Source: Candidatus Latescibacterota bacterium (GTDB taxonomy: Bacteria; Latescibacterota; UBA2968; UBA8231). Taken from it: a stretch of 64,000 nucleotides of DNA. The position numbers and the translations under genes were made by a program. Under the pieces are notes generated by a model. It was not told where the DNA came from. It was given only the letters and a program-made list of their open reading frames with translations, and ran no database searches. Positions 25,311-59,463 of this stretch are shown piece by piece. Where the stretch lies: NCBI GenBank assembly GCA_965206595.1, contig OZ242214.1:6462675-6526674 (forward strand). The letters run 5' to 3'. The first letter of the stretch is position 1; the number at the start of each line of letters is the position of its first letter.

Positions 25311-27308
25311 TCAATAAGGCAGTTGGGACACCGATTTCGATACCAGGGCGATGGCTACCGTGCTCATGCCGATCAGTCCCATCCCCGCCGCGTAACCCGC
25401 CAGCAGCACCGGCGCGTATTGGCGCCACTTCTGTTTGCCGAATCGCCTCTCGAAATAGTAGCGTCCCAGCAGGGCACCGATCATTTCGGGAATCAGCAGA
25501 TGGGACAACTGTCCCACACCCCTGATGAATCCGTAGATGAGCAGGACCGGCAGTCCCAGTACGGTCAGCAAGACGTACGAACTTACTCCGAAGAGAAAGC
25601 CTGCTCCGATCCAATCGAACTTGATCGCCTCCAGAAAGAGATGGTTGCCCTCGGTCGTGGCCGAGATCCAGATCGACTGCCGAAGCGCGGTGAGATGCCA
25701 GAACTTCTGGGCGTACTGGAAGATCGGTGAAGGGATGGAAGTGTTGTTCCAGATCAGGGTCCAGAAGAGCAGGCTGCAGCCGAGGGCCACCGGAATCAAC
25801 AGGAGTTCGGCTTTGATGATGCTGGTGAAGCGCGTCCCGGTAAGCTCGAACTGCCTGAACATCTGCACGCTGCCGCCGTAGTTGTCATAGGGAACGGGCG
25901 CGAACCAGATGTCGACCCCCCTGTAGCCGGAGAGGATGAAGGACCCTTCGCGAATCATGGGAAAACCCACGGTCTGTCCCGTCATGCCGACCATGCGCGC
26001 ATTTATGTAGGAGAGCACGGGCGTGAGCAGGAAGCCGAAGAGGAGCAGGAAGCCGAGAGGGAATTCATCGTCTTCGAGAATCAACATGCAGACGGCTATG
26101 TAGGCGCTCGTGGCCAGCACGTACAGCCCGAGTCCGACCCAGAACGGAATGTCGCCGCGCCCCGGGGGCGGGGCGAAGGAGCGGCCTTTCTCGCTGCGCG
26201 CGCGCAGGGTCTGCCTGGTCGACAGGAACACCGTGACCAGGCCGATCACGGCGACAGCGAAGCCCATCCCAATGGCCACGCTCATCCATAGATCCACGGA
26301 GTTGGCGAACTCCGTCGTCACCGTGTCCATGCCCGGGCGCCAGATCGTCAGCAAGCCGGCGTTGTAGAGCAGCGGATTGACCAGCACGTAAACCATGGCC
26401 ATGAGGAAGCCGCCGACGACCACCCAGAATGGCAGCACGAAGCCGGTGATCACCACGCCCAGGTCGGTCATGAAACCGGTGGGGCTGGCCGGCAGGAAGG
26501 ATTCGGTGAGTGGTGTCGTGTCGATCCAGGGGATGGGGATGAGGTTGAGCGGCTCCTTCATGATGATCCCGGTGAGGGCGGGCACGCCGACGTAGACGAT
26601 GCCGAAGAGGACACCGGTCGTCATCCCGACGATGAAGACATTCCAGCGCCACGTCTCCTTCTCGCCAGTCGACTCCGCCAGCGCCAGCGCTCCCTGCGCG
26701 CCGACCGGTGCCATCGGGAACGGCAGATTCTCTACGTCGGAGGTGACGCGGAAGAGCGTGTAGCCGGCGCCGAACCAGGCCATCCTGCTGGCGATATACT
26801 TGAATGCGATGAGGGTGACGGCGGGGATCCACGCCTTGTGGAACAAGGTGCGGTGCACCAGGGCCGGCGAATCGGCCGGCGGGGATACCCATTCGGGTAT
26901 CTGCCCGGCGATACCGAATCCTTCAACCGCGGTGGATTGGACCAGGTACTGATGCCACATCGCCTCGGCGAAGGGACCACCGGCCAGCATCAGGCCGCCA
27001 CCGAGCACCACCTCGGTCAGGCCGCCGGCGATGTAGAAGAGGACGAAGACTTCCTGCTTGCGCAGTACTGTAAACGACCGCCTGGCGATCTCGGCGAACA
27101 GGATGATGGTGACCCACTCGGCCGCCGGTCCCATGCCGCGACCGGCAATGAGACCCAGATAGATCGATCCGGGAAGCATGACGAAACCGATGAAGAAGGC
27201 GCCGAGCACCGAGCGCATGTTGAAGCCATCCTCGAACTCGGATGGCACCTCCATCGCGGCGCGGTATTCTTCAAGATCCCGGGTGGAGCGATCCCTCTCT
27301 TTCAGCAC
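25311..27308 (-). CDS. Large polytopic integral membrane protein of unknown function (paralog of 52715..54748)
   Basis: 665 aa, >12 hydrophobic segments. Shared motifs with the second copy, e.g. R.T...ENL.FP (RVTSDVENLPFPMAP vs RQWTETENLNFPITQ). Confidence 0.65.
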   Translation of the reverse strand: MLKERDRSTRDLEEYRAAMEVPSEFEDGFNMRSVLGAFFIGFVMLPGSIYLGLIAGRGMGPAAEWVTIILFAEIARRSFTVLRKQEVFVLFYIAGGLTEVVLGGGLMLAGGPFAEAMWHQYLVQSTAVEGFGIAGQIPEWVSPPADSPALVHRTLFHKAWIPAVTLIAFKYIASRMAWFGAGYTLFRVTSDVENLPFPMAPVGAQGALALAESTGEKETWRWNVFIVGMTTGVLFGIVYVGVPALTGIIMKEPLNLIPIPWIDTTPLTESFLPASPTGFMTDLGVVITGFVLPFWVVVGGFLMAMVYVLVNPLLYNAGLLTIWRPGMDTVTTEFANSVDLWMSVAIGMGFAVAVIGLVTVFLSTRQTLRARSEKGRSFAPPPGRGDIPFWVGLGLYVLATSAYIAVCMLILEDDEFPLGFLLLFGFLLTPVLSYINARMVGMTGQTVGFPMIREGSFILSGYRGVDIWFAPVPYDNYGGSVQMFRQFELTGTRFTSIIKAELLLIPVALGCSLLFWTLIWNNTSIPSPIFQYAQKFWHLTALRQSIWISATTEGNHLFLEAIKFDWIGAGFLFGVSSYVLLTVLGLPVLLIYGFIRGVGQLSHLLIPEMIGALLGRYYFERRFGKQKWRQYAPVLLAGYAAGMGLIGMSTVAIALVSKSVSQLPY

Positions 27309-31889: not shown

Positions 31890-31917
31890 GGTAGCTTACC
31901 CCCTTCAGTGTGCTGCA

Positions 31918-34809: not shown

Positions 34810-34827
34810 GGATCGCCTCTGCGGCCG

Positions 34828-44518: not shown

Positions 44519-44568
44519 GGTCTGGGTGCGCGTCTTCCGCTGCGAGGCGCGCACCCAGACCCTTTTTT
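44519..44568 (+). terminator. Rho-independent terminator: 14-bp GC-rich stem (GGTCTGGGTGCGCG...CGCGCACCCAGACC) followed by CTTTTTT
   Basis: Perfect inverted repeat plus T6, 34 bp after the stop at 44485. Confidence 0.75.
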
Positions 44569-44659: not shown

Positions 44660-45925
44660 ATGACTTCACGTCCCCGGCGCGAAGAGCGTTTTTCCACTCC
44701 GTCAGATCTGCTCGATCTGCGCCTGCTCCGACGGAGAACACGCGAGTTTCTCTACTGGGGCTTGGGGATCGCGCTGGGTTGCCACCTGGGATTGGCTCTC
44801 TATCTGGTCCTCAGTCACAGGGAGGAGCCCGTAGCCAAACCGCAGACCGTGGAGTTCGTCGTGCGCCAGCCGCGTATGACCAAACCCTTCGAGTTGAAAA
44901 AGAAGCGGGTACCCCACAGGGTGATGACGCGCAAGGTCGCCACCGCCAAGCCCGAACAGGTGCGCACCCTGAGCAAGCGGATCGACCGACCGGATGTCTT
45001 CGGCACCGTGGCCACGGTCTCCTATACCGTGCAGGACAGTGCCGCCGTGGGTGACGAGGTGGTGATGCCGGCCCACAGTGCGGCGCAGGTCGCCAGCTTC
45101 AAGGAACCGGGGAAACGGATCAGCATGCAGGAGGAGTTCATCGATGTCCGCGCTCTGGATACGGGCAAATACAAGGCGCTCGTCATCCAGGATCCGCAGA
45201 ACAGGCAGGATATCAAAGGATTCGTCCACCTGGCCCTGGCCTGGGGGACCGACCTCGAACCGAAGGCGCCCAGAGCGGTACCGAAGCTGGTGGAAGCGAT
45301 GAACCGGTACACCAGCATCGAGGCGCGCGTGGACAACCATCTCTTCATCGACTCCAGCGAACTGCTCGAGACCCCGTTCGTGTACATCACCGCCGACGAC
45401 GCCTTCGAGATAACGGAGAAGGAGATCGAGAGCCTGCGCCGGTACCTGGAAAGCGGAGGGTTCATCCTGGCCGACAATGGAGTGGCAGAGCTGGAGTACG
45501 GACCGGGCGAGGCCTCTCTGCGCAAGATGTTCAAACAGGTGCTGGGCAACAAGGCGCGTTTCCAGAACCTTCCTCGGGATCATCCCATATATCACAGTTT
45601 CTTCGACTTCGACGGACCACCTCCGGGAGAGGAAGTCAGCCAGAAGGTGCGAGTGTCAGGAGAAAGAAGGGGTGTGCTGACGGGCGCAACCCGCGGCATC
45701 CAGCACGCTGTATCCAAACCAGCGCACTTCCTCGAGGGGATTTATCTGGGCGACCGGTTGGTGGCCGTGTACTCCGACAAAGCCTACGGCAAGTACTGGG
45801 AGCGGGAGTACGAAAACGAGCCGCAGTTGAAGATAGGGGTCAATATGGTCGTCTTCGCCTTGACCCAGCAGGGCTCCATTGCGCAGCAGCACATCGACTT
45901 CTACGAGCATTCCGCGAGCCGGTGA
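44660..45925 (+). CDS. DUF4159-domain membrane-anchored protein
   Basis: N-terminal TM helix. KGFVHLALAWGTD...PFVYITADDAFEITEKEIESLRRYLESGGFILADNG...HPIYHSFFDFDGPP fits the DUF4159 pattern. Confidence 0.6.
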   Translation: MTSRPRREERFSTPSDLLDLRLLRRRTREFLYWGLGIALGCHLGLALYLVLSHREEPVAKPQTVEFVVRQPRMTKPFELKKKRVPHRVMTRKVATAKPEQVRTLSKRIDRPDVFGTVATVSYTVQDSAAVGDEVVMPAHSAAQVASFKEPGKRISMQEEFIDVRALDTGKYKALVIQDPQNRQDIKGFVHLALAWGTDLEPKAPRAVPKLVEAMNRYTSIEARVDNHLFIDSSELLETPFVYITADDAFEITEKEIESLRRYLESGGFILADNGVAELEYGPGEASLRKMFKQVLGNKARFQNLPRDHPIYHSFFDFDGPPPGEEVSQKVRVSGERRGVLTGATRGIQHAVSKPAHFLEGIYLGDRLVAVYSDKAYGKYWEREYENEPQLKIGVNMVVFALTQQGSIAQQHIDFYEHSASR

Positions 45926-45939
45926 CGAGACAGGGGGAC

Positions 45940-47244
45940 ATGGCTGAGCGACTATCGAGGCGCGGGCGGCTTTTGTCCAGGATTGCGATCGCTCTGAGTC
46001 TGTTGGTGGCGGTAGATGGTTGTATCCTTTTTCCGCGGCACTACGACTACCGTTCCTCCCTGGTTTCGGCGATCTCCCAGGAACAATTGGAGACCGATCT
46101 GGGGGCCTACGAGGTGGACGAGAGCGGCCAGGTCTCCTTCCGTCTGGAAGGGTTGCGTATCGATGTGCGCCCGCTGACGGACGAGGAACTGAATCGACGC
46201 TATCCCGACGAGTCGTCCCAGGGAGAGCACTCCACCAATCCCTACACCTATGGCGACTGGGTGGATCCCAGTCGCGGCCATACTCCGGCCCGCTTCGTCT
46301 GTTTCGAGATTTCGGTGCACAACTACACCTACGCCAAGGTGGAGCTGAGCCCCACCGAAGCGGTGCTGAAGACGGACAAGGGGGAGCTCTTCCACGCTTA
46401 TGGTGTTTCCGCGCTCTCTTCGCCGTATGGCAACAGCTTTGAGCGCTACTACCGATCGCGCCGTGGACAGAGCGGTAACGAGTATTACCGTTTCGATTAC
46501 CGCATGGGGTTGGTGCGCAGCACCTATTTCGGTCGGGACGAACCGATCTTCAAGGGCGACAACTACAGCGGACTGATCGCTTTCGACGTTCCGCGACAGG
46601 AGGCGGAAAAGGTGCGTCTGGTGCTCGTGGACTTCGTCACCAAATTCGACAGTTTAGGGCGTCCCCTGGAGACGATGGACATCCCCTTCGACTTCTATCG
46701 CCAGATCGAAGTGGCGGAGAGGATCCAGGACCGGCAGCAGGTCGAAACCGCTACGACCGAGGTAATAACGGAAGGGCCGCGGAATATAACCGGGAACCTA
46801 CCCGGGGATGCCAGCAGGAGCGCCGCTGCGGTGAACGCCATGGTGAGGTCCCGCCTGAGTGAAGTGAATGGCTGTTTCAGTCAGTGGTTCGACGCCGGCG
46901 AGGCCGTGGCCGGCGAAGTGGTGATCGAGTTCACCATCGCTCCCAGTGGGCTGGTGGGGCGGTCCGAGGTCGTGGAAGCGAGCGTGGCCAACGACGAGGT
47001 GGGGCCATGTGTGGCTGAGCGCGTGGCGGCCTGGCGCTTCCGGGCCGCAGGCGAGGGGCTGGCCGGGTCTGCCTCGCCGGTGGATGACGGAACAACGGGG
47101 GAAGAGATCGACGATGGGGGAGGTGACCGCTCTTCCCGGCAGGGTGCAATTGCTGCCTCTCATGCCCTCCAACGACTGGCTTCCACTCAGGAGGTCACGG
47201 TGGTCTATCCGTTCCTTTTCCGGGCGGCGGACCAGGCGGAATAG
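45940..47244 (+). CDS. Hypothetical lipoprotein with TonB/AgmX-like C-terminal domain
   Basis: Lipobox LLVAVDGC; C-terminal region with NGCF...GEVVIEFTIAPSGLV...VGPCVAERVAAWRF. Confidence 0.5.
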   Translation: MAERLSRRGRLLSRIAIALSLLVAVDGCILFPRHYDYRSSLVSAISQEQLETDLGAYEVDESGQVSFRLEGLRIDVRPLTDEELNRRYPDESSQGEHSTNPYTYGDWVDPSRGHTPARFVCFEISVHNYTYAKVELSPTEAVLKTDKGELFHAYGVSALSSPYGNSFERYYRSRRGQSGNEYYRFDYRMGLVRSTYFGRDEPIFKGDNYSGLIAFDVPRQEAEKVRLVLVDFVTKFDSLGRPLETMDIPFDFYRQIEVAERIQDRQQVETATTEVITEGPRNITGNLPGDASRSAAAVNAMVRSRLSEVNGCFSQWFDAGEAVAGEVVIEFTIAPSGLVGRSEVVEASVANDEVGPCVAERVAAWRFRAAGEGLAGSASPVDDGTTGEEIDDGGGDRSSRQGAIAASHALQRLASTQEVTVVYPFLFRAADQAE

Positions 47245-47252
47245 GACTGGAG

Positions 47253-47684
47253 TTGTACCAGAAAGGCAAGAGCATGTTGCGCCGAGTTGTGCCGGCGGTG
47301 ATGGCCGGCCTCACGCTGCTCGCCGGCTGTGAGAAAGACCATCAGCCGGTCACCTCTTTCCATCAGAGCCTGGAGCCACCGGTCAGCGTGCAGGCGGCGT
47401 GGACGGGGACGGGCGAAGTGCGGGCAACGTGGGAGATGGAAGGCGCCGACGACCTGGTGCATGGGTTCGTCGTCACCCTCAGCCACCGCGGCAACCTCAT
47501 CTACGGGCGAGCGGTGGAGGGAGCCGAAGTGCGCAGCTTCACATCGAGCGGTTTCGACACGGACGATATCGCCGCCGATGGGGAGGGGACAGCCACCTGG
47601 CTGCTCGTCCGCGTTCGGGCCTACGACGAGAATCTCTTCCAGGGGCCGCCTTCCGAACCGGATTCTGTACAGGTAGGCTCCTGA
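47253..47684 (+). CDS. Small lipoprotein with fibronectin-type-III-like fold
   Basis: Lipobox LTLLAGC; the beta-strand pattern VRATWE...GFVVTL...TATWLLVRVRAYD suggests a single beta-sandwich domain (tentatively FN3-like). Confidence 0.45.
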   Translation: MYQKGKSMLRRVVPAVMAGLTLLAGCEKDHQPVTSFHQSLEPPVSVQAAWTGTGEVRATWEMEGADDLVHGFVVTLSHRGNLIYGRAVEGAEVRSFTSSGFDTDDIAADGEGTATWLLVRVRAYDENLFQGPPSEPDSVQVGS

Positions 47685-47696
47685 GCCCCGGCTGAA

Positions 47697-50600
47697 GTGC
47701 GAAACGCCGGATCCCTGGAACGGGACGACCCGCAACTCCCGCCGGCGAGGTTCCCATGGGCCCCGGCGGTGGCGCTGACCTCCATAGCCGCCTTCGCAAC
47801 GCTTCTCTACCTCTACTTCACCGATTTCCCGTTTTCGTTCCAGTCCTTTCCGGATGCCGCTGCTCCGCGCAGTGCCGTCGACGGCTCCGCCGCCGAGAGC
47901 CGCGTCGACCTCGAGCGCCTGCGGCGCACGATCGCGATCCTTTCCAGCTACTCCTCCCGCGTCAGCGGCTATCCGGGCGCTGACAGCGCCGCCACCTGGA
48001 TCGAAGATCAGTTCCACCGGGTCGGACTGCAGTCGGTGACCGCCATGCCGTTCGAGCTGCCGGTGCCGCTGGACCGGGGCGCGCGGCTGGTGGTGGAGCC
48101 AGAGGGGCCGACGGTCGAGCTGTTCTGCCTGTGGCCCAATCTGGTGCGCACGTCCACCCTGCCCCCGGGCGGCATCAGCGGCCAACTGGTCTACGGTGGC
48201 CATGGCGAGCTGTCGGCTTTCAACGGACTCGACATCGCCGGGCAGCTGGTGCTGATGGAGTTCGATTCCGGGATGAACTGGATCGAGGCCTTCGACCTGG
48301 GGGCAGCGGCGGTCCTCTTTCTGGAGCCCGAAACAGCGAACCGCGCCGAGGCCGAGCAGAAATTCCTCTCGGTGCCGGCCGATCTGCCGCGGTTCTGGGT
48401 GCCGCGCCGGGCGGGGGAGACCCTCAAGAAGCACCTGGGCAAGAGGGTCCATCTCTCGGCGCGCATGGAGTGGGCGAACGCTCAGGGACGCCACATCCTC
48501 GGTGTCGTGGAGGGGAGCGACCCGCAGCTCAGGGACCACGCCCTGGTGCTGGAGGCCTATTACGACGCCGCTTCGGTGGTGCCGGCCCAGGCTCCGGGCG
48601 CCGGGGCGGCCTCGGGTGTGGCGGTGCTGTTGGAGGTCGCCCGCGAGATGGCCGCCCAACCGCCGGCGCGCACCGTGGTTTTCGTCGCCAGCGGCGGTCA
48701 CTTCCAGGCGCTGATCGGCATGCGCCAGCTGGTGGCCCTGATGGACGGAGGGCAGGAAGGGCTGGCGCAGCGGCGGGAGCAGCTCACCGAGCGCCTGCAC
48801 CTGCTGGAGCAATTCACCGCTTTTCTGCAAGGTGGCGGCTCCCTGCCGGCGGCAACGGAGAGCCTCCCCAGCCGTCTCGTCGAGGAGCTGGCCGACAACG
48901 CTGCCCGCGTAGTGGCCCAGCAGGAAAACAGACTCGAAGGGCAGGTGGAGGAGGCCGAGCGCGTTCGCCTGAGGACCATGCTCGATGTGGCGCGCCCCCT
49001 GCGCTGGATCGAATCGACCGCGGAGATGGAGTCCCTGTTTCGCTCACCTGCCCTGGTGGAGGTGCTGCGCCAGCGTCAGGCGGAGGAGATCGGGGATCTC
49101 CGGCAACAGCTGACGGTCGTCGAGGGGCAGGGGCGGTTTCTGGCGGTGCTCGACCGCTACCGCCTGGATGCCTGCCTGGGATTGGATCTGTCGGCGGGCG
49201 GGGACCGCGTCGGTATCTTCGGGGGCGGCGGCTTCTATGATTTCGGGCCGGGCTGGGCCCACAACCGCAATACCCATGGCGATTCTCCGTTCTACGAACG
49301 GGTCATGGGGGCGGCGAAACGGGTCGAGGAGGGACTGGCCGCCGCCGGCTTCGGCGAACCGCCGCTGTTCTTCGACGGCATCCAGTTCGAGCGCGAGCGG
49401 CTGGCCCTGGGAGGCCATCACGAGCCCCTCCCATTCAACGGCGGTCCCCTGAACGCGTGGGGGTTTCTCACCGCGACCCTGGCCACGCTGGCAGACACCC
49501 GTTCCGCCTTCGACACGCCGCTGGATCGCGCCGCGGGGCTTGACCTTTCGCGCCTGGGCAGGCAGGCCGAGTTCCTCCTGCCGTTCCTGCGCGAAGCCGC
49601 AGACGATCCGCTGATCGCCATGATTGCCCGCGGCGAGTCCGATTTCTTCGGCTACGTAGAAGGCCGGACCGTCTACTTCGATCCGCACACCAGCTTCGTG
49701 CCGGACGCGCCGGTACCCCATACCCTGGTGCGCCTGCGCCTGCCGGCAAAGACCCTTGTCGGTGTGCGCACCGAGTTCCTGGCCATGGCCGATCGCCACG
49801 GCCGTTTCCGCATGCCCGGGGTCATCCGCGCAGCCTCTTTTTCAGGAATGGTGCCGATGAAGCTGGAAGCGTATCACCTCGACCCTGGCGATGGTTCAGT
49901 GGACTATGTCGCGGACCTGGGGGTCAACGGCGCCGAGCGCTACCCGCTGGAACTCGATTTGGACCGCAAGCGCAAAGAAGTCAGCGTCGTGCTTTTCGAG
50001 GCCGACGGGGTGAGCCTCTTCGAAGCGCTCGACTACCGCTATCTGGATGTGCTCAACAGTCTGTCCGTACTGGAGGAGGGCCGCGAGGTGCAGCCGGTTG
50101 AATTCGGTTACACCCTGCCACTGTATCCTTATAACGATCGTCAGGCGGGCGTCCGTTTCGATTACAATGCCAGATGGGTGCAAAAGAAGCTGGATTCGCT
50201 GGTCGAACCCTGCGTGGTGGTCTTCGCCCCACCCGGAACGCGGATGAAGATCGCCATGACCTGGGGATTCTACGGCATGGGCAACCGCTACCTGCTCCTC
50301 AACGGCTCGCCGGAAACAGCGATCGGCGAGGGTTTCGCCGTCTCCCGACAGACGCGCCTGACCCATACCGCCTATCAGGTGGCGCGGGACATCTGTCTGC
50401 TGAACGACAGCCGCATCGACAACCTGCAGCGGCACGGGGTGCGCAACGAGCGCCTGCGGAACCTGCACGACCAGGCGCTGGACTACCTGGAGGAGGCCGG
50501 GAAAGCGCTGGAGAAGAAGGAATACGATCGCTTCGGCGAGATGGCCCGCCGCTCCTGGACCTACGCCAGTCGAGCCTACCTCGATGTGCATGGCACGACC

Positions 50601-52706
50601 GGTGACGTGGTCAAGGGAGTGCTCTTCTATATGGCCCTGCTGATCCCCTTCGCCTACTTCGGCGAACGGCTGCTGCTGGCCGGGGCGACCATACGGCGGC
50701 AGCTGCTGGGACTGACGGCAGTCTTCCTGATGGCCTTCGGCATCCTGAGGTGGGTGCACCCGGCCTTCGATCTGACGCTCAACCCCGGCATCATCCTCCT
50801 CGGCTTCGTCATCTTCGGCCTCAGTGTACTGGTGATCCGAATCGGTCTGACCAAGATGCAGCAACAGATCCGGCGGGTGATGAGTCGCGTGGGCGGGGTG
50901 CACCGGGCGGATATGGATCGCTCGGGGGCCATATGGAGCGCCTTCGATCTGGGCATCAACAACATGCGACGCCGGCCGCTGCGCACCCTGCTCGCCATGT
51001 TGACGATCGTCCTGGTGACGTTCTCGGTGCTGGGCTTCACCTCGGTCAAGACCTTTCTGCGCTTCAACCAGGTACCGGCACGGGGCGCGGCCCACTACAA
51101 TGGACTTTTAGTGCGACAGGTGGGCTGGGCACCGGTGAACGAAAGGATCCATGCCGGCATCGCCAACCAGTACCGGGAGCAGACCGTAAGCCCCCGGGCC
51201 TGGTTCGACGGCACGGCGAAGGGAGTAGCAGGCGTCGCGCCGCAGAGCAGGGTGCGGGTCGAACGGCTGGACCGGCGTGACCGGGCGGGCACCGCGATGG
51301 CCGTCATCGGACTGACGGCGCAAGAGGCGGCCTTGACCGCCCCCCAGCGCGCCCTGTACGCCGGACGCTGGTTCGAGCCGGGCGAGGAGCAGGTATGCAT
51401 CCTGCCGCTGCGCCTGGCGCGCCTGCTGCGTATCGGGCCGGCCGACGTGGATATAACCCGGGTGGTGATCTCCGGGGAGATTTTCACGGTCGTAGGGCTG
51501 CTGGACGAAGGGCTGTTCGACAATCTGCTGGATCTCAGCAACGCCCCGTTGACGCCGCTGGATCCCGACGCCACACAGCCGACGGAGAAGACCGGGGGGG
51601 CCGCCGAGCGCGCCCTGTCGGGAGAAGAAGAGAGCTTCGTCCACCTGGCCGCCGAGCAGGCGATCGTCGTGCCCTACGCCGTGGCGCGCCGCTGGGGAGG
51701 AAGCATCCGCTCCGTCGCAATCGGCTTTGCCAGCGCTCAGGCCGTCGGCAAGGCGATCGAGGAATGGATGGCGGGGCTGGCGGTCAACATGACCGCCGGC
51801 ATCGATGGCAGACGCTACTTGCTGAACGCGGTGGATCTGCAGTCGGTGGGCGGTCTGAGCAACATCGTCATTCCGCTGGTCATCGGAGCCCTGATCGTGT
51901 TGAACACGATGCTGGGCTCGGTCTACGAACGGCGGGAGGAGATCAACACCTATACGGCGGTGGGGCTGTCGCCGCTCCATGTAGCCGGTCTGTTCATCGC
52001 CGAAGCGGCGGTGTATGCGAGTTTCGGAGCCGTGCTGGGCTACCTGACGGGCCAGCTTGTGTCGAAAGCGGTGTCTTCCTTCGACTGGGTATCCGGGGTT
52101 ACCCTCAACTATTCGTCGCTGTCGGTCGTCTACACCATCGCTCTGGTGATGGCGGTGGTGCTGCTCTCGAGCCTCTATCCGGCAACCCAGGCTTTCCGGG
52201 TCGCGGCATCGGCCGTGCAGCGCAAGTGGATCCTGCCGCCTGCGGTGGGAGACGAGCTGTCGATGACGATTCCGGTCACCGTCCGGCAGGCGGACGTGGC
52301 AGGCCTGATGGTCTACCTCACCGAATATTTCGCGCTGCATGAAGAGCAGACGGTGGGGGCCGCCTTTTACACCCGGGATGCCCGCTACGATCGCCTCGAC
52401 ACACCCGGCGGACCGGTGCACGAGGTCGGCGTGCGCGTCTGGGTGGCTCCCTTCGACCTGAATGTGAGTCAGTGGCTCAAGCTGGACGCCGTCCCCGGTC
52501 AGGAGGACATCTACGAGGTCAGGGTGCAGGCGCGCCGGGCTTCAGGCGAGCGCGAAAGCTGGCTGCGCAAGAACTATGCTTTCTTCAACGACCTGCGCAA
52601 GCAGTTCCTGATATGGCGCGCGATCGGCGACGAAACCCGGCAAAGCTACGAGGATCGCGCCCCCGGACTGGCCGGGCAGGATCCCCACGCGGTACTGGAA
52701 CTTTGA
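47697..52706 (+). CDS. Giant (1669 aa) fusion protein: N-terminal TM + PA/M28 peptidase-like domain, central region, and C-terminal MacB/FtsX-type permease (large periplasmic loop + FtsX 3-TM domain); no ATPase domain
   Basis: M28-like YYDAASVVP...ASGVAVLLEVAR...VVFVASGGHF. MacB-like TM1 NNMRRRPLRTLLAMLTIVLVTFSVLGF. FtsX domain VIPLVIGALIVLNTMLGSVYERREEINTYTAVGLSP...LSSLYPATQA. No Walker A motif found. Confidence 0.7.
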   Translation: MRNAGSLERDDPQLPPARFPWAPAVALTSIAAFATLLYLYFTDFPFSFQSFPDAAAPRSAVDGSAAESRVDLERLRRTIAILSSYSSRVSGYPGADSAATWIEDQFHRVGLQSVTAMPFELPVPLDRGARLVVEPEGPTVELFCLWPNLVRTSTLPPGGISGQLVYGGHGELSAFNGLDIAGQLVLMEFDSGMNWIEAFDLGAAAVLFLEPETANRAEAEQKFLSVPADLPRFWVPRRAGETLKKHLGKRVHLSARMEWANAQGRHILGVVEGSDPQLRDHALVLEAYYDAASVVPAQAPGAGAASGVAVLLEVAREMAAQPPARTVVFVASGGHFQALIGMRQLVALMDGGQEGLAQRREQLTERLHLLEQFTAFLQGGGSLPAATESLPSRLVEELADNAARVVAQQENRLEGQVEEAERVRLRTMLDVARPLRWIESTAEMESLFRSPALVEVLRQRQAEEIGDLRQQLTVVEGQGRFLAVLDRYRLDACLGLDLSAGGDRVGIFGGGGFYDFGPGWAHNRNTHGDSPFYERVMGAAKRVEEGLAAAGFGEPPLFFDGIQFERERLALGGHHEPLPFNGGPLNAWGFLTATLATLADTRSAFDTPLDRAAGLDLSRLGRQAEFLLPFLREAADDPLIAMIARGESDFFGYVEGRTVYFDPHTSFVPDAPVPHTLVRLRLPAKTLVGVRTEFLAMADRHGRFRMPGVIRAASFSGMVPMKLEAYHLDPGDGSVDYVADLGVNGAERYPLELDLDRKRKEVSVVLFEADGVSLFEALDYRYLDVLNSLSVLEEGREVQPVEFGYTLPLYPYNDRQAGVRFDYNARWVQKKLDSLVEPCVVVFAPPGTRMKIAMTWGFYGMGNRYLLLNGSPETAIGEGFAVSRQTRLTHTAYQVARDICLLNDSRIDNLQRHGVRNERLRNLHDQALDYLEEAGKALEKKEYDRFGEMARRSWTYASRAYLDVHGTTGDVVKGVLFYMALLIPFAYFGERLLLAGATIRRQLLGLTAVFLMAFGILRWVHPAFDLTLNPGIILLGFVIFGLSVLVIRIGLTKMQQQIRRVMSRVGGVHRADMDRSGAIWSAFDLGINNMRRRPLRTLLAMLTIVLVTFSVLGFTSVKTFLRFNQVPARGAAHYNGLLVRQVGWAPVNERIHAGIANQYREQTVSPRAWFDGTAKGVAGVAPQSRVRVERLDRRDRAGTAMAVIGLTAQEAALTAPQRALYAGRWFEPGEEQVCILPLRLARLLRIGPADVDITRVVISGEIFTVVGLLDEGLFDNLLDLSNAPLTPLDPDATQPTEKTGGAAERALSGEEESFVHLAAEQAIVVPYAVARRWGGSIRSVAIGFASAQAVGKAIEEWMAGLAVNMTAGIDGRRYLLNAVDLQSVGGLSNIVIPLVIGALIVLNTMLGSVYERREEINTYTAVGLSPLHVAGLFIAEAAVYASFGAVLGYLTGQLVSKAVSSFDWVSGVTLNYSSLSVVYTIALVMAVVLLSSLYPATQAFRVAASAVQRKWILPPAVGDELSMTIPVTVRQADVAGLMVYLTEYFALHEEQTVGAAFYTRDARYDRLDTPGGPVHEVGVRVWVAPFDLNVSQWLKLDAVPGQEDIYEVRVQARRASGERESWLRKNYAFFNDLRKQFLIWRAIGDETRQSYEDRAPGLAGQDPHAVLEL

Positions 52707-52714
52707 GCGCGACC

Positions 52715-54748
52715 ATGGCGGAAACGGAAAACGCCGATCGGAACGCCCGTGGCGGCGACGCGGGCGACCGCGGGCTGACGCTGCGATCGTTCCTGCTCGG
52801 GGTCGGGTCGATCACGCTGATCAGTCTGCTGTTACAGGAGGTGACGTTGGCGCTGGGCGGCCCCGACCTGAACGAGTGGGCGCCGGCGGCGGGCCCGGTC
52901 GTGCTGCTGGGTATGCTCGTGCTGCTGCTTCTGGGGTTGCGAGGCCTGCTGCCGTGGCTGCGGCTGAGTCGCGGCGAACTGGTCGTCATCTACTGCATGG
53001 CCTATGTGGGTTCCGTGCTGTCGGGAACCGGCCTGGTGCACCGGCTGCTCCCCGGCATGGTCACGAACCATTTCATGTACGCCGAACCGGGGACGTGGTA
53101 CTATCCTTTCCTGAAATACATCCCCACCTGGTTCGGTCCCGCCGCTGCCGATCCCGAGGCCGTGGACGAGTTTTTCGCGCCCACGGGCGCAGGCGTGCCC
53201 TGGGGGGCGTGGCTGCTGCCGCTGGCGGCCTGGTCGGTGCTGATCTGCAGTCTGTTCTTCGCCATGCTGTGCGTGGTTATTCTGCTGCGCCGGCAGTGGA
53301 CGGAGACCGAGAATCTCAATTTCCCGATAACACAGCTGCCACTGGCGCTCATCGGCGGCGACGCCGCGGGCGGCACCCTGGGTGGACTGCTGCGCCACCG
53401 ATTGATGTGGATCGGCTTTGCCGTCTCCGCGCTGCTCCTGGGGTATAACGGCCTGACCAACTACGTGCAGGCGTTGACCCCGGTGAGTCTTGAGCTGGCC
53501 TTCGCGAACTTTCTGGTGGAAAAGCCCTGGAGCGCCGTGACGCTGGAAACCATGGCGCCTTCCGACCCCTTCCTGTTTTCGGTCTCGCCGCTGATGATCG
53601 GTATCGCCTATCTGTTCCCGCTGAATACGCTGTTCAGCGTCTGGCTCTTTTACCTGCTCACCCGCCTGCAACTGCTCGGTGCGGAGCTGATTGGTCTGTC
53701 TCACATGACGGCCACGAATCGGCTCATGTTTTTTTCCGGCTCCAGGCAGTTTCCCTTCTTCGGCAGCCAGGCTCAGGGCGGCATCTACGTGCTTGTCATC
53801 TTCATGGTCTGGAGTGCCCGGTCGCATCTGCGGGAACTCATCGGCAAAGCCTTCAGCTTCCGGCATGGCAGCCAGGACCGGGAGGGGGAGGAGCCGTTCT
53901 CCGCGGGGTTCACGCTCTGGGGCCTGTCCGGTGCGCTGGTCGTCTGCATAATCTGGGCTCATATGGCGGGCATGAGCGTGGGGTCCGGACTTGCCTTTTT
54001 CGTGCTCTTTCTGCTCCTGGCGCTGGCCTTTGCCCGCATGCGCGCCGAAGCGGGAGTGCCGTTCACCTACGAGCTGCTGCCGGTACCGTTCCTGATCTAC
54101 ATGGCGACGGGCACCGGTCCCCGAATCTACTCCGCCTCCGACCATCAGATCTTCTCTCACCTGAACATGCTCTGCGCCAGTGGGTTCGGTATGTTGATGG
54201 TGATCCTCTTCGAATCGTACAAGATGGGGCAGGTCGCGGCCGTACCGGCGCGCCGCATGACCCTGGCGCTGGTGCTTGCTTTCGCACTGGGGCTGGTGAT
54301 CGCCTACTGGGCCTCGTTGACGGCGATCTACACCCACGGCCTGCAAGACATGGGGAGCGGCAACCAGTACGCCGCCCTAGCCTTCTACCAAGGTCGGGAG
54401 GTGCATCACACCGTGCACTGGGCACACAAATCACAGCCCGTGGCGTGGCTGAATTACGCCTTCGAAGGGATCGGTTTTGCGATCACCGCCAGCCTGGCCG
54501 TTCTGCGGCGGATGTTCTCGCACTGGCCGCTGCATCCGATCGGCTTCGTGGTCGGCACCGGGTTTGGCTACAAACTGTGGTCCTCTGTACTCATCGCCTG
54601 GGCGATCAAGTCGACGATGCTGCGCTACGGCGGGGTGCGCCTCTACCAGATGGCCATGCCGGCCTTTCTGGGGCTGGCCCTCGGACACCTGAGCATGGAG
54701 GTGTTCTGGGCGATCGTGGCGCTGGCGGTGGGTTCCGCCGGGGGGTAG
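52715..54748 (+). CDS. Large polytopic integral membrane protein of unknown function (paralog of 25311..27308)
   Basis: 678 aa, many TM segments; motifs shared with the first copy; immediately precedes the sulfatase gene. Confidence 0.65.
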   Translation: MAETENADRNARGGDAGDRGLTLRSFLLGVGSITLISLLLQEVTLALGGPDLNEWAPAAGPVVLLGMLVLLLLGLRGLLPWLRLSRGELVVIYCMAYVGSVLSGTGLVHRLLPGMVTNHFMYAEPGTWYYPFLKYIPTWFGPAAADPEAVDEFFAPTGAGVPWGAWLLPLAAWSVLICSLFFAMLCVVILLRRQWTETENLNFPITQLPLALIGGDAAGGTLGGLLRHRLMWIGFAVSALLLGYNGLTNYVQALTPVSLELAFANFLVEKPWSAVTLETMAPSDPFLFSVSPLMIGIAYLFPLNTLFSVWLFYLLTRLQLLGAELIGLSHMTATNRLMFFSGSRQFPFFGSQAQGGIYVLVIFMVWSARSHLRELIGKAFSFRHGSQDREGEEPFSAGFTLWGLSGALVVCIIWAHMAGMSVGSGLAFFVLFLLLALAFARMRAEAGVPFTYELLPVPFLIYMATGTGPRIYSASDHQIFSHLNMLCASGFGMLMVILFESYKMGQVAAVPARRMTLALVLAFALGLVIAYWASLTAIYTHGLQDMGSGNQYAALAFYQGREVHHTVHWAHKSQPVAWLNYAFEGIGFAITASLAVLRRMFSHWPLHPIGFVVGTGFGYKLWSSVLIAWAIKSTMLRYGGVRLYQMAMPAFLGLALGHLSMEVFWAIVALAVGSAGG

Positions 54749-54751
54749 GAC

Positions 54752-56227
54752 ATGAGCTCACCCCGCAACATCATCGTCGTCATGACCGACCAGCAGCGCC
54801 CGGACTTCATGGCCGGCGAGGGCTTTCCGCTGGATACCATGCCGCGCGTCGACGCCCTGTCGACGGAGGGCATCCGCTTCCGCAAGGCCTACACACCGGT
54901 CCCGCTGTGCCTGCCGGCCCGCTGCAGCTACCTGACGGGGCGCTTCCCGCGGGCCCACGGCGTCAAGGCCCACAGGATGGCAGAGCCCCGCTACGAGCGC
55001 GACCTGGTCGATGTTCTCAACAACGCCGGCTACACCACCGGGCTGGTGGGCAAGGACCACACCTATCGACAAGGGGCCCAGCGCGGGTTGTGCGGCCCCC
55101 CGGCCAGCCCCTACCACTTCCACCTGGGCGGCTGGTTCGTCGACGAGATGGCCCATCCCGATCCGGCCCTGCGCGACCGGCAGGAGGACTTCTGGCGTTG
55201 GATGCGCGAGCTTGCCCACGGAATCTCGGAGGAGCCGACGCCGTTTCCCGTGGGGTTGCTGCAGCCGGTCCGGGTGGTGGACGCGGCCATCGAGCTGCTC
55301 GAACAGATGCGCCGGGAGCCATTCTACCTGTTTCTCGGCTTCGACCCGCCGCACAGTCCCTACCAGGTACCCGAGCCGTATTTCAGCCTGTTCCCTCCCG
55401 ACGAGATCCCACCCCCGGCGGCGGGAAGGGAAGTCCTGGAAGGACGGAACTTCCAGTGGCGCTTCTCGCGGCGGCTGATCGAGGAGTACTGCCCGGATCC
55501 GGAGCGGCTGGTCCCCCGCTACCGGGCCAACTACTGCGGCATGCTGCGGTTGATCGACGATCAGGTGGGGCGACTGCTGGATTTCCTGGAACAGAGCGGC
55601 CTGAGCGAGAGCACGGTCGTGGTCTTCACCTCGGATCACTCCGATTACCTCGGCGACTACGGCCTGCAGCGCAAAGGGGTCGGACTGCCGGAGAATCTGG
55701 TGCGGATCCCGATGGTCTGGCGCGGGCCGGGGATCGTGCCGCGCTCTGAGGCCAGCATGGCGCACGTATCCCTGGTGGACGTGCTGCCGACACTGTGCGG
55801 CATGCTCGGGCTGGAGTCGCCCCAGGGGGTGCAGGGGAGGGACCTGTGGCCGCTGTTGAGTGGGGCCGGCGATGGGGCGGAGCTGGACTCGATGTACGCG
55901 GAAGCCGGGGTGGAGGGCCGGCCGTATGCAGCGGAGGACGAGCCGCCGCTGCACGGGGGAAGCTTCACCCTGAAGTCGGTGGAGACTTATTGCGAGCTCA
56001 ACGACGTCACCCAGACCGGCAAGTGGAAGATGGTGGTGAAGGGCGACTGGAAGCTGGTCGTGGATCCGTACGGCACGTGGGAGCTCTACGATCTGCGGGC
56101 CGATCCACACGAGCTGAGGAACCTGGCCGACGACGCGGCCCACAACGGCAGGCGGCAGGAGCTGGCCGAGGAACTGGTGCGCTGGGACATGCGGCTGGGG
56201 GATTCTCTTCCTGGGAGACGCAGATGA
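54752..56227 (+). CDS. Sulfatase (formylglycine-dependent arylsulfatase family)
   Basis: IIVVMTDQQRPD, CLPARCSYLTGR (C-x-P-x-R FGly motif), GKDHTY, VVVFTSDHSDYLGDYG. Confidence 0.85.
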   Translation: MSSPRNIIVVMTDQQRPDFMAGEGFPLDTMPRVDALSTEGIRFRKAYTPVPLCLPARCSYLTGRFPRAHGVKAHRMAEPRYERDLVDVLNNAGYTTGLVGKDHTYRQGAQRGLCGPPASPYHFHLGGWFVDEMAHPDPALRDRQEDFWRWMRELAHGISEEPTPFPVGLLQPVRVVDAAIELLEQMRREPFYLFLGFDPPHSPYQVPEPYFSLFPPDEIPPPAAGREVLEGRNFQWRFSRRLIEEYCPDPERLVPRYRANYCGMLRLIDDQVGRLLDFLEQSGLSESTVVVFTSDHSDYLGDYGLQRKGVGLPENLVRIPMVWRGPGIVPRSEASMAHVSLVDVLPTLCGMLGLESPQGVQGRDLWPLLSGAGDGAELDSMYAEAGVEGRPYAAEDEPPLHGGSFTLKSVETYCELNDVTQTGKWKMVVKGDWKLVVDPYGTWELYDLRADPHELRNLADDAAHNGRRQELAEELVRWDMRLGDSLPGRRR

Positions 56228-59200: not shown

Positions 59201-59431
59201 CGCGGCCGCCTCGCGCAGGGCGAAGGATTTGCGCGCCCCCGCGGGCAGATCCGTCACCCATGCGACCTTCGGCTCCGTGGCATGCAGCTGAGCCGCCGTC
59301 GCATTTCCGCTTTCGTCGATTACCTCCAGACAATCTGTCTGAGGTCTCGACTGCAGGTCGTGCCACACCACTTCGTCCGGCCAGTCGTGGTCGACGTACT
59401 CAACCAGATCCCATTCTTCCATCACCCGCAT
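56249..59431 (-). CDS. Heparinase II/III-like (polysaccharide lyase) family protein, tandem copy 1 (~1060 aa)
   Basis: MRVMEEWDLVEYVDHDWPDEVVWHDL... N-terminus with RBS GGAGA; Hepar_II_III-like C-terminal half (...GHFDGDEGSFIWYAYGTPMLIDYMTGYSP...); ~90% identical to copy 2. Confidence 0.65.
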   Translation of the reverse strand: MRVMEEWDLVEYVDHDWPDEVVWHDLQSRPQTDCLEVIDESGNATAAQLHATEPKVAWVTDLPAGARKSFALREAAAPPDTPLSLKISPGVAEVTNASFGLRISWDGADPQAGPMIAVRGADGIWFGGSSFAADTPPAQDLRCELLAGGPVVVRLRQTWALADGSTLRLTWEVDAATAALRYWQEQEGDAEGAVVWHLGRGFEPTQAYWRPSQSPRVPIYRQFDYHRHTYSMRYPAEPERMELGLMYLHGFDRSNIWAGWYAGGERRDVLMVAPIRPSQTRVAAGELWTRHPSGAGYTHANRLRWAQHSAAEVDGEKRIDLALPLQEGVRPFALAMLDREEADLSCEPGRNPANDIDRLCARLMALGLDDYARMDLDWPGIEEARFPGIFLGAGELPEIRRTLDEWDWFRGTFFAHVEDEFFNSLAGEDMLLAKGLPPIGRDLAGGYLATGDESYAARAKEELVPRFAPLVECMLGYSIGNERNFGISLAQSIPRDALALDFILGSGQFTAEERLALLRKMLFLAETIISEDTWPRYESGLALSMRNFNTHVIFGRAVLGGRAEGHPKQKQWFAAIRDQIDWVLENEIDDAGTGNEALTYQTIDFGYFLQCALIMGTDEARPLLEKPRFRKALEYWIDTLTPPDPRNKNKRMYPPLGHTASGSSGGFSQSAFLALAAKVYRPIDPEFSLRCMRAWRACGSYIINWRDAGAHGCTIWAQPLCFIDRDLLDDDVEVEVADSRLCGKTGAMLRHRHGDGKRTEGFLMFKTGKNRGHFDGDEGSFIWYAYGTPMLIDYMTGYSPMMDQPWMNNRISIDHRQDRRNPGRFLAHRFSPEIDFLCAEQTISELQEFPEWPRRFRHQHFEYVSAPWEQVPEHRWRRHLLYLKPLETLVLLDDIAGTLPTDWSIQVLADNVRATGTTARFKGQLGIDLAVAFARPQEPDLLTSSYAHLGSYEPGQMAEYKRTWYWSREDIRERDLFARTGGEHAMILRAHAQPGRPFLAMLTAHRADGPLPEIAVRPDHYGFELQTDAGEAEVTVDGGYTRWKVRLSTSSGEVHQELGI

Positions 59432-59463
59432 TCGTGTCTCCTCTGTCGGACTCACCCACTTCA

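Follow-up and report, generated by a model that had tools for sequence, protein, structure and literature searches.

The 64-kb stretch of Latescibacterota DNA analysed here, referred to below as the window, contains a genuine open reading frame that starts with GTG and encodes a single polypeptide of 1669 residues, which we call BIG (Table 1). Pfam, a profile search of the PDB and two confident AlphaFold models agree on its architecture, an ectodomain built from a PA domain and an M28 fold joined to a complete MacB-type permease, and so bear out the fusion proposed in the initial annotation. BIG carries eight transmembrane helices. Hydropathy and sequence place a short cytoplasmic tail ahead of the N-terminal anchor, and the region of the three additional helices contains an invariant periplasmic loop, H1021-P-A-F1024. 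The DUF4159 protein and the lipoprotein described earlier as neighbours are both found upstream of BIG; the gene for a DUF6785/DUF6784 membrane protein just downstream had gone unmentioned.

Table 1. Features of the BIG locus, with residue ranges of BIG and nucleotide positions in the window
Feature	BIG residues	Position	Strand	Basis
BIG, whole gene: 8-TM protein with pseudo-M28/PA ectodomain (predicted), MacB-type permease and C-terminal cytoplasmic domain	1-1669	47697..52706	+	
N-terminal TM anchor	~23-43	47763..47825	+	hydropathy, sequence
PA + M28-fold head, predicted pseudo-peptidase	~72-643	47910..49625	+	
Four-helix insertion within the M28 fold, ~145 aa	~340-485	48714..49151	+	AlphaFold H297-442, model m96e955fdc60c
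Beta-rich extracytoplasmic region	~651-867	49647..50297	+	AlphaFold model
Helical stalk, running on into the membrane	~891-970	50367..50606	+	AlphaFold helices 848-951 (model numbering)
Three additional TM helices	~971-1051	50607..50849	+	hydropathy, model
Amphipathic elbow helix and MacB-type TM1	~1075-1117	50919..51047	+	model H91-107, H110-130
Periplasmic domain between TM1 and TM2, MacB Porter/Sabre-like	~1118-1383	51048..51845	+	model, Foldseek
FtsX domain: TM2, major coupling helix, TM3, TM4	~1384-1507	51846..52217	+	Pfam, PDB alignment, invariant columns
C-terminal cytoplasmic alpha/beta domain	~1520-1669	52254..52703	+	model, invariants
DUF6785 + DUF6784 polytopic membrane protein, 677 aa, conserved partner		52715..54748	+	Pfam E 6e-107, 1e-24
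comp0, 665-aa polytopic membrane protein, second, unlinked partner-type gene		25311..27308	-	tblastn, hhalign
DUF4159 protein		44660..45925	+	Pfam, NCBIfam
440-aa protein, TonB_C/AgmX-like C-terminal domain		45922..47244	+	Pfam, NCBIfam
Small lipoprotein (lipobox)		47274..47684	+	Pfam, NCBIfam
Cys-type sulfatase, CLPAR motif		54752..56227	+	Pfam, sequence

The M28 alpha/beta fold with its inserted PA domain is present in the head of BIG, where Pfam returns a partial match to Peptidase_M28 (PF04389; residues 268-342, profile positions 3-73 of 193, E 1.4e-6). The five canonical zinc ligands of this family are H97, D117 (bridging), E152, D179 and H256 in AAP numbering. At the canonical M28 positions BIG has Y288/Y289/D290, G303, G334/H335, D497 and G582/G583: aligned to canonical M28 proteins, a zinc-ligand His is replaced by Y288, the bridging Asp by G303/A304, the zinc-ligand Glu by H335 and the last zinc-ligand His by G582/G583, leaving the second Asp, D497, as the one position of five that is kept. 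The catalytic Glu, the general base of the EE motif, is G334 in BIG, and every one of the 29 family members aligned for this comparison has Gly or Ala there. In the family as a whole, three or four residues that could bind metal are retained (E303, H335 and D497, together with H288 or E583), and metal binding is therefore possible in relatives of BIG; the protein in the window has neither E303 nor E583. Judged by these residues, the M28 module of BIG is a predicted pseudo-peptidase, and the label "M28 family peptidase" is misleading for it. The coupling of peptidase activity to the permease that had been suggested earlier is thus not supported, given the loss of the catalytic Glu throughout the alignment and of four of the five ligand positions in BIG itself; the retention of zinc ligands, proposed as a check, comes down to D497. 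Structural or sequence neighbours of the head include the transferrin receptor, nicalin, nicastrin and GPAA1, M28-fold proteins that carry similar substitutions and are non-catalytic.

What had been described as one block of about 700 residues of unknown function resolves into several parts. The second half of the M28 fold is split by the four-helix insertion, a region not aligned with canonical M28 proteins in the PDB profile alignment, and is followed by the beta-rich region, for which neither Pfam nor the PDB gave a sequence match, then by the helical stalk and the three extra transmembrane helices.

The four-helix FtsX core (TM1, then TM2 to TM4) bears the PF02687 signature (residues 1391-1501, E 3e-14), aligns by profile to residues 470-655 of MacB (5lil) and is matched by Foldseek, with probability 1.0 for the permease, to MacB, LolC/E, HrtB and YtrF. 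The NCBIfam FtsX equivalogs score BIG at 12-22 bits, far under their cut-offs of 225-255. Alignment to MacB 5lil extends to the elbow and TM1, from residue 269, and the elbow motif FxLGIxNMRRRxxRT is conserved alike in BIG proteins linked to an ATPase gene and in those of Latescibacterota and Gemmatimonadota. The periplasmic domain between TM1 and TM2 is modelled as mixed alpha/beta and matches the isolated periplasmic domain of MacB (5c59/5lj8; E 1e-3 to 9e-3, TMt 0.44-0.53), the best match being 5c59 with E 1.3e-3 and TMt 0.53; PF12704 (MacB_PCD) is recorded for many BIG homologues and gave no match in the window protein at E<=1. A major coupling helix is present, modelled at residues 1413-1421, and E1411, R1412, E1415 and I1416 are invariant in the family alignment. 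This ERxxEI motif, which contacts the NBD, is invariant in Latescibacterota too, and the coupling helix is equally conserved in ATPase-linked and Latescibacterota/Gemmatimonadota proteins. The cytoplasmic domain that follows is family-specific, with invariant W1511, P1514, W1582, P1585, D1587, W1622, R1634, Q1636, W1640 and R1641. The model that includes this domain gave weak Foldseek matches to PYL, PR-10 and CoxG folds (E 0.03-0.07), and a START/Bet v 1-like fold is possible for the domain, as a lead only.

BIG is genetically coupled to polytopic permeases of the DUF6785 superfamily that are weakly similar to OPT transporters. In the window the DUF6785/DUF6784 gene begins 8 nt past the BIG stop codon. 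Across the 83 loci whose neighbourhoods were counted, including 22 from Latescibacterota and 9 from Gemmatimonadota, a gene of this superfamily directly adjoins BIG on the same strand in 67, and a partner permease adjoins it in 49 of the 57 loci with full flanks. From gene adjacency alone we infer that BIG and the permease interact physically. A second gene of partner type, comp0, lies about 20 kb from BIG in the window and shares 47-49% identity (tblastn) with genes downstream of BIG in other loci; its orthologues stand immediately downstream of BIG in 56/83 other loci. Comparison of comp0 with DUF6785 by hhalign (probability 95.8%, E 8e-9) indicates that the two families are related. Pfam OPT matches two of 38 comp0 orthologues below threshold (E 2.6e-5 to 5e-5; 22.5 bits against a gathering cut-off of 25.8 for PF03169), and in one of them, at locus L062, residues 147-432 are colinear with OPT profile positions 102-415 (E 5e-5, likewise sub-threshold). 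Neither of the two window partners matched OPT in Pfam even at E<=10, and neither DUF6785 nor comp0, queried individually or as a profile, had a sequence match in the PDB. By sequence, the partner permeases would be related to OPT at the superfamily level at best.

The remaining neighbours in the window differ in standing from the permease. The genes for the DUF4159 protein, the 440-aa TonB_C-like protein, the lipoprotein and the sulfatase were considered as conserved partners and rejected: their homologues are restricted to an 89%-identical relative (L004/L086), and they are therefore lineage-specific. A strong terminator (44519-44561) precedes the DUF4159-to-lipoprotein genes; the sulfatase, which has no signal peptide, begins 3 nt past the DUF6785 gene. 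Pfam annotation of 90 ORFs that flank the module at a diverse set of loci revealed no recurrent function beyond clade-level synteny, represented by RecD2, TPR, Hpre_diP_synt_I and pilin-like DUF1559 families. A PqqD-like gene occurs in 31 of the 83 BIG-related operons, but is absent within 10 kb of BIG at all 22 loci from Latescibacterota and all 9 from Gemmatimonadota.

The family is large. It numbers 570 loci or more in species genomes, and sequences that match the ectodomain at E<=1e-30 form 809 clusters when grouped at 50% identity. Over 200 homologues, 1385-1680 aa long and with few exceptions full-length and of the same architecture, supply the orthologous fusions that the initial annotation had proposed to look for. 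The family is abundant in Latescibacterota, Gemmatimonadota, Armatimonadota, Omnitrophota, WS1 and Desantisbacteria, often in several copies per genome; several genomes hold more than one paralogue, and one locus has a tandem copy. Public annotations call members either "M28 family peptidase" or "FtsX-like permease", and a literature search on DUF6785, DUF4159 and FtsX with M28 returned no relevant paper.

Where is the motor of such a permease? A six-frame scan of the window for strict Walker A motifs (G..G.GK[ST]) returned one site, at 2471, which belongs to UreG of a urease accessory cluster and was rejected as the motor of BIG. The scan found no ABC ATPase in BIG or anywhere in the 64 kb, extending the earlier observation that none is encoded in the protein or nearby; there is no FtsE gene beside BIG, the family ATPase HMM had no match in the window, and the window holds no small FtsX gene. 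HMMs of other module genes, the PqqD-like, 330-aa and PAP2-like ones, likewise had no match in the window. A different arrangement is seen in 18 of the 83 loci, from Armatimonadota, WS1, Desantisbacteria, one MAG labelled Nitrospirota and unclassified MAGs, where the operon includes a dedicated LolD/MacB-type ATPase (GPSGSGKS...LSGGQ) and a small FtsX without a periplasmic domain, which suggests a heterodimeric permease. These ATPases share 71-100% identity, and the BIG tree places their loci in three distinct clades. Since orthologous operons in other phyla hold both genes, the absence of the ATPase is a trait of this locus and its lineage and not of the BIG family. The earlier view had allowed that this might be an ordinary MacAB-like system if the M28 catalytic residues were all substituted and the same operon encoded an ATPase immediately outside the window: the residues are indeed nearly all substituted, and the ATPase stands in the operons of relatives, not beside BIG here. 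None of the 22 Latescibacterota and none of the 9 Gemmatimonadota loci has the ATPase and small FtsX within 10 kb. When the family ATPase and the small FtsX were each used as a profile query, the best 120 matches included no protein named as Latescibacterota or Gemmatimonadota, a weakly negative result, as near-identical Armatimonadota and unclassified matches filled those 120 places. In the MAG JBHIEF01, the ATPase accompanies one BIG locus (L035) and is missing from another (L044).

Based on these analyses, we view the BIG family as a widespread branch of the type VII (MacB/LolCE/FtsX-type) ABC mechanotransmission systems, and propose, as a reading with about an even chance of being correct, that BIG serves as the large subunit in an uncharacterised machine of the type VII ABC class, acting together with OPT-like permeases and with its ATPase probably encoded elsewhere in the genome. 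The missing motor at this locus probably reflects scattered genes and not a new principle, and a single ATPase is perhaps shared among the BIG paralogues of one genome. In the proposed mechanism, a LolD/MacB-type ATPase would dock on the conserved coupling helix of BIG, and ATP binding and hydrolysis would move the stalk helices, repositioning the periplasmic domain and the pseudo-peptidase head fused to it. The head would serve as a ligand-binding or hand-over module and not as an enzyme, handing a substrate, periplasmic or associated with the membrane, to the adjoining OPT-like permease or receiving it from there; its role as a receptor is suggested by analogy to nicastrin, the transferrin receptor, nicalin and GPAA1. 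What might be the substrate? The aminopeptidase-fold head, the OPT-like partners and the PqqD-like protein in part of the operons hint at a peptide-like ligand, and the cytoplasmic sulfatase gene that comes after the permease gene in this operon hints at import, but both substrate and direction are guesses.

It is conceivable that the FtsX-type module of the Latescibacterota and Gemmatimonadota proteins has lost its coupling to ATP altogether, although we regard this as unlikely. BIG could then be a passive scaffold, or a conformational partner that the OPT-like secondary transporter, and thus the proton-motive force, drives or gates, with the C-terminal cytoplasmic domain standing in for the NBD. 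The empty record of these lineages speaks for such a machine: no ATPase lies within 10 kb in any of their 31 loci or in the 64-kb window, no named protein from either phylum appears among the best 120 matches for the ATPase or the small FtsX, and a family-specific domain takes up the position after TM4 that the minor coupling helix has in MacB (PMC5985334). The ERxxEI and elbow motifs, however, are as well conserved here as in ATPase-linked proteins, and in this lineage the system's genes are plainly dispersed, with comp0 20 kb away. The C-terminal domain, with the same invariants, also occurs in ATPase-linked proteins, P0026 and P0084 among them, and is therefore not a substitute for the NBD. 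That we know of no ATPase-independent FtsX-family protein also counts against this reading. Its more specific form, in which BIG and the OPT-like permease of these two phyla make up a two-component machine without any ABC ATPase, the fold being driven or read out by a proton-motive-force-dependent transporter cycle or by a ligand on the C-terminal domain, we consider decidedly unlikely; if true, the ATPase-free BIG would, to our knowledge, be the first case of a type VII ABC fold operating without ATP.

The remaining alternatives assign the head a different task. As an active membrane-tethered metallopeptidase, the M28 module would trim periplasmic peptides or proteins and feed the OPT-like permease under regulation by the FtsX module. 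This is very improbable given the Gly or Ala at the catalytic position in all 29 sequences and a window protein that keeps D497 alone, without the E303 or E583 of its relatives; the known M28-fold proteins that carry such substitutions, named above, are non-catalytic. An envelope-remodelling regulator similar to FtsEX, whose ectodomain would recruit or activate a cell-wall hydrolase or, as cells grow or divide, act on the stem peptides of peptidoglycan, would fit the FtsX-type fold and the coiled-coil-like helical insertion in the ectodomain, and has precedents in the hydrolase-controlling systems FtsEX-EnvC/PcsB and YbbAP-TesA (PMC12646458). No amidase, LytM, CHAP, NlpC/P60, hydrolase activator, other cell-wall hydrolase or division gene was found in the window operon, in the Pfam-annotated neighbourhoods or among the 25 commonest families of the 90 flanking ORFs. 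Flanks beyond the module are not conserved, several paralogues per genome and a tandem copy are unlike a housekeeping part of the divisome, and the partner that is constant, a polytopic protein, resembles a transporter. We give this reading only the slimmest chance; the likeness to FtsEX-EnvC drawn in the initial annotation may serve as a mechanical analogy and not as a link to cell-wall hydrolases or division.

What is the relevance of this design? Type VII ABC systems (MacAB-TolC, LolCDE, FtsEX-EnvC, YbbAP-TesA) turn cytoplasmic ATP hydrolysis into periplasmic work, and each of those characterised has brought a different envelope process to light. The BIG family adds a new design, in which an aminopeptidase-fold domain, predicted to be dead and receptor-like, is fused directly to the permease, and the permease is paired with OPT-like secondary transporters, joined in some phyla by a PqqD-like peptide-binding protein. 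The family bears on whether secondary transporters and ABC mechanotransmitters can work together, and the substrate of BIG could expose a new route of uptake or export in poorly studied phyla.

The head of BIG resembles the PA-domain M28 aminopeptidases of Aneurinibacillus (AM-1, 2ek8), B. subtilis (BSAP/YwaD, 6hc6) and P. aeruginosa (PaAP, 8ac7), from which it differs in the replacement of the catalytic Glu and most zinc ligands, in its 145-aa helical insertion and in being built into a permease, with both of its ends tethered to the membrane. The M28 (+PA) ectodomains of transferrin receptor 1, nicastrin of gamma-secretase, nicalin and GPAA1 of GPI transamidase also lack the catalytic residues and act as ligand or substrate receptors on membrane machines; unlike BIG, these are eukaryotic proteins that cross the membrane once and carry no fused ABC permease. 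The partner genes encode polytopic proteins of about 650-700 aa, as do OPT (PF03169) genes, and the ExLxFP motif that they share lies where OPT proteins have LPFPxG, but the DUF6785/DUF6784 and comp0 families are separate from OPT and have no characterised member. ATPases of the MsiK/MsmK type are shared among sugar importers whose permease genes have no adjoining ATPase; BIG genes similarly can lack an adjoining ATPase gene and occur at several paralogous loci per genome, and JBHIEF01 has loci of both kinds, although the permeases served by MsiK/MsmK are, unlike BIG, type I importers.

The mechanics of the type VII ABC systems are established (PMC5985334, PMC12646458), and with MacB, LolC/LolE, FtsX, HrtB, YtrF and YbbP BIG has in common the four-helix FtsX core, the elbow helix, the Porter/Sabre-like domain between TM1 and TM2 and the ERxxEIG coupling helix; operons of its relatives contain a LolD/MacB-type ATPase and, as in LolCE, these relatives probably heterodimerize with a second FtsX subunit. 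That small subunit, unlike the type VII proteins, is without any Porter domain, and in the lineage studied here no ATPase gene is present in cis. No MacA/HlyD membrane-fusion protein or outer-membrane factor was found in the window operon or the annotated contexts, and BIG has no MacA, TolC, LolA-like or EnvC-like partner. Instead, an ectodomain of about 950 aa and three extra transmembrane helices are fused N-terminal to the core, a cytoplasmic domain of about 150 aa is fused C-terminal to it, and the constant partner is an OPT-like polytopic permease.

The BIG ORF, which encodes 1669 aa from a GTG start, is a genuine gene, and the fusion of a PA/M28 ectodomain to a MacB/FtsX-type permease described in the initial annotation proved correct. 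Pfam places an FtsX domain at residues 1391-1501 (E 3e-14) and a Peptidase_M28 match, covering only the first third of the profile, at residues 268-342 (E 1.4e-6); the NCBIfam matches to FtsX, MacB and LolC/E are all far below threshold. A profile of 29 aligned homologues resembles PA-containing M28 aminopeptidases in its N-terminal part (2ek8, E 2e-17; BSAP/YwaD, 6hc6) and the whole MacB transmembrane domain in its C-terminal part (5lil residues 269-655). Eight TM helices were assigned from hydropathy and two AlphaFold models, each built from an alignment of ~100 sequences and covering residues 44-1000 (pLDDT 87, pTM 0.88) and 985-1669 (pLDDT 84.5). The C-terminal cytoplasmic domain is family-specific and rich in invariant Trp, Pro and Arg; weak START/Bet v 1-like Foldseek matches of the model (E 0.03-0.07) may stem from it.

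Features of the window (nucleotide positions), segments of BIG (residues) and M28 positions in the BIG head (29 aligned sequences)
Feature	Position	Strand	Remarks
ureF, ureG (urease accessory)	1390-3058	+	
hemC, fused uroporphyrinogen-III methyltransferase/synthase	3269-5874	+	after ureF/ureG
Predicted AAA-ATPase_like and PD-(D/E)XK (PDDEXK_9) protein	21292-22839	+	
203-aa protein	23632-24243	-	no match; in comp0 cluster, oxidoreductase side
Gfo/Idh/MocA oxidoreductase	24258-25310	-	cytoplasmic, no signal peptide; directly after comp0
comp0 copy	25311-27308	-	47-49% identity; 20 kb from BIG, opposite strand
298-aa membrane protein	27337-28233	-	weakly LppM-like; flanks comp0
Very large genes	28644-40157	-	1081-aa TPR protein, then 963, 1319, 892 aa
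T9SS-type C-terminal sorting domain protein	40176-42347	-	divergent from next gene
T9SS-type C-terminal sorting domain protein	42572-44485	+	divergent from preceding gene
Strong terminator	44519-44561		
440-aa protein	45922-47244	+	one N-terminal TM; C-terminal AgmX/PglI/TonB_C-like domain (NF033768, E 9e-17)
BIG	47697-52706	+	
DUF6785/DUF6784 gene	52715-54748	+	8 nt past BIG stop codon
Cys-type sulfatase	54752-56227	+	CLPAR formylglycine motif; 3 nt past DUF6785 gene
Very large genes	56249-62937	-	1281 and 1157 aa
BIG N-terminal anchor	23-43		hydropathy and models
BIG PA/M28 head	~72-643		
BIG four-helix insertion	~340-485		145 aa, within head
BIG beta-rich region	~651-867		
BIG helical stalk	~891-970		
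BIG three extra TM helices	971-1051		invariant periplasmic HPAF loop
BIG elbow helix, TM1	1075-1117		
BIG periplasmic domain	1118-1383		
BIG TM2, coupling helix, TM3, TM4	1384-1507		
BIG cytoplasmic alpha/beta domain	C-terminal end		~150 aa
AAP H97, zinc ligand	Y288		His in 8/29
AAP D117, bridging zinc ligand	G303/A304		Glu in 27/29
AAP E151, catalytic base	G334		Gly or Ala in 29/29
AAP E152, zinc ligand	H335		invariant
AAP D179, zinc ligand	D497		invariant
AAP H256, zinc ligand	G582/G583		Glu583 in 15/29

The peptidase activity that had been proposed to be coupled to the permease is unlikely. We aligned the family to 2ek8/6hc6 and tallied residues per alignment column, citing the canonical M28 positions in Aeromonas aminopeptidase (AAP) numbering. 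The general base is absent from all 29 aligned members. Degeneration has gone furthest in the window protein and its close relative, which keep one zinc-ligand position of five (D497 in window BIG). Columns near the former active site (Y289, D290, H335, D497, D600, R602, D606 and D610) are nevertheless among the most conserved of the ectodomain, from which we infer that the site has been retained as a binding pocket.

BIG belongs to a large, unstudied family, distinctive both in its fusion and in its partner. The search for orthologous fusions returned more than 200 homologues of 1385-1680 aa, nearly all full-length and of constant architecture, and the ectodomain as query gave 809 clusters (50% identity) at E<=1e-30, nearly all of 1.4-1.7 kaa; the fused form is thus the norm. 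A collection limited to one genome per species contains at least 570 loci, and the phyla given in the records comprise Latescibacterota, Gemmatimonadota, Armatimonadota (including Zipacnadia), WS1, Desantisbacteria, Omnitrophota and one Nitrospirota. Members carry the NCBI labels 'M28 family peptidase' or 'FtsX-like permease family protein', and literature searches for the family and for DUF6785 turned up no papers. Several genomes hold two or more paralogues, and the tandem DUF6785-BIG-DUF6785-BIG of Latescibacterota OZ244937.1 (L056, 7436-20918) shows that DUF6785 and BIG are duplicated together.

How would such a permease be powered? The 64-kb window encodes no ABC ATPase; its sole strict Walker A site is that of UreG, and HMM searches found no homologues of the family ATPase, small FtsX or PqqD-like genes there. 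The reported lack of an ATPase thus holds locally, but is weakened by 18 of 83 homologous loci, in which the operon also encodes a small FtsX protein and then a LolD/MacB-type ATPase (GPSGSGKS...LSGGQ). This pair lies directly upstream of BIG or after comp0, a polytopic membrane protein; Pfam annotation gives the order FtsX-ABC_tran-BIG-comp0 in L084 (WS1) and L085 (Armatimonadetes). Seven aligned ATPases are 71-87% identical despite their different phyla. In the small FtsX (~215-250 aa) a ~60-aa loop, acidic in L084 (8201-8917) and L085 (6723-7448), replaces the periplasmic domain. To our knowledge, all type VII ABC permeases characterised so far have at least a Porter subdomain; the small FtsX would be unusually reduced for an FtsX protein.

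Within 10 kb of BIG, with loci grouped according to the phylum that their record gives, an ATPase occurs in 0/22 Latescibacterota, 0/9 Gemmatimonadota, 6/20 Armatimonadota and 9/20 unclassified loci, and at the single loci of WS1, Desantisbacteria and Nitrospirota (1/1 each). Neighbour joining on the C-terminal 700 residues splits the ATPase-linked loci into three clades with unlinked loci between them; the window and its nearest relative, a Latescibacterota MAG with 89% protein identity (L004), are placed together on a long branch whose sister clade consists of Latescibacterota loci arranged BIG-DUF6785-comp0. The NBD-contacting motifs, FxLGIxNMRRRxxRT (elbow helix/TM1) and GSVYERxxEI (coupling helix), show equal conservation in the ATPase-linked and the Latescibacterota/Gemmatimonadota groups, and the Armatimonadota MAG JBHIEF01 has the small FtsX-ATPase pair at one BIG locus (L035) but not at its second (L044, DUF6785-BIG). 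Because of the interleaved clades, the equal conservation and this genome, we favour, short of proof, a model in which the window genome's ATPase would be encoded elsewhere, with paralogues possibly sharing one. That the window's system works independently of ATP strikes us as improbable.

The neighbours of BIG were surveyed at the 83 loci with newly called ORFs and HMMs. A DUF6785/DUF6784 polytopic membrane protein adjoins BIG on the same strand in 34 of them, and comp0 (650-830 aa, no Pfam model) lies directly 3' in 56; one or the other adjoins BIG in 67/83 loci, and in 49/57 where flanks are full. DUF6785 and comp0 are remotely homologous to each other (hhalign probability 95.8%, E 8e-9, 331 columns), with a common ExLxFP motif, and in 2 of 38 comp0 members Pfam OPT matches colinearly but below threshold (E 2.6e-5 and 5e-5). 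The window's comp0 sits in its own tight minus-strand cluster (23632-28233), unlinked to BIG, whereas elsewhere it directly follows BIG. Further module genes encode a PqqD-like protein (PF05402, E 9e-11; 31/83 loci), a 330-aa protein without Pfam match (27/83) and a weakly PAP2-like membrane protein (20/83); none is in the window, and no recurrent genes beyond the module were found in the flanks of BIG loci. At L002 (17200-19152), the 330-aa protein, a 133-aa PqqD-like protein (RiPP-recognition-element-type) and a 206-aa weakly PAP2-like protein lie 3' of comp0, as such genes do at 20-31 other loci.

The terminator upstream and the tight gene spacing suggest that 44660-56227 is one transcription unit, in which the 440-aa protein gene begins within the DUF4159 gene, sharing its last 4 nt. 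Its DUF4159, TonB_C-like 440-aa, lipoprotein and sulfatase genes recur solely in the 89% relative. The catalytic fold of the sulfatase begins with the first residues, without a signal peptide, and the enzyme is therefore presumably cytoplasmic; its position directly after the DUF6785 gene hints at import of a sulfated compound through that permease.

Elsewhere, the window (G+C 59-74%) holds very large proteins, none with a significant Pfam match except the TPR protein; the 963-aa one has only a sub-threshold SlpA_C match. The sorting domains of the two T9SS-type proteins match CHU_C, FlgD_ig and Por_Secre_tail, and one of the proteins additionally has an F5/8 type C domain. AAA-ATPase_like/PDDEXK_9 proteins are frequently associated with mobile elements. 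Beside the BIG locus of another Latescibacterota genome (L001, 1-5910) lie a type I-U-like CRISPR-Cas set (Cas_GSU0053/GSU0054, Cas3) and transposases.

In MacB, LolCDE, FtsEX and YbbAP-TesA, the effect of NBD dimerisation reaches the periplasmic domain by way of the coupling helix and the stalk helices (PMC5985334; PMC12646458). By analogy, we propose a type VII ABC complex in which BIG would be the large, asymmetric permease subunit, probably paired in a heterodimer with the small FtsX where that is present, and in which movement powered by ATP would be applied to the pseudo-peptidase head fused to the permease. The adjoining OPT-like permease would, we speculate, use this head as its ligand receptor or hand-over module. 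Three clues, weak but independent of one another, suggest a peptide-like ligand: the head has an aminopeptidase fold, the partners are OPT-like, and other loci encode a PqqD-type peptide-binding protein. Both window permease genes are directly followed by a gene for a cytoplasmic enzyme without signal peptide, the sulfatase and the oxidoreductase, a pattern that fits import. Judged by its residues, BIG does not fit how an active M28 peptidase is defined, and the partners characteristic of FtsEX-EnvC or MacAB-TolC systems are missing; its architecture is that by which type VII ABC permeases are structurally defined.
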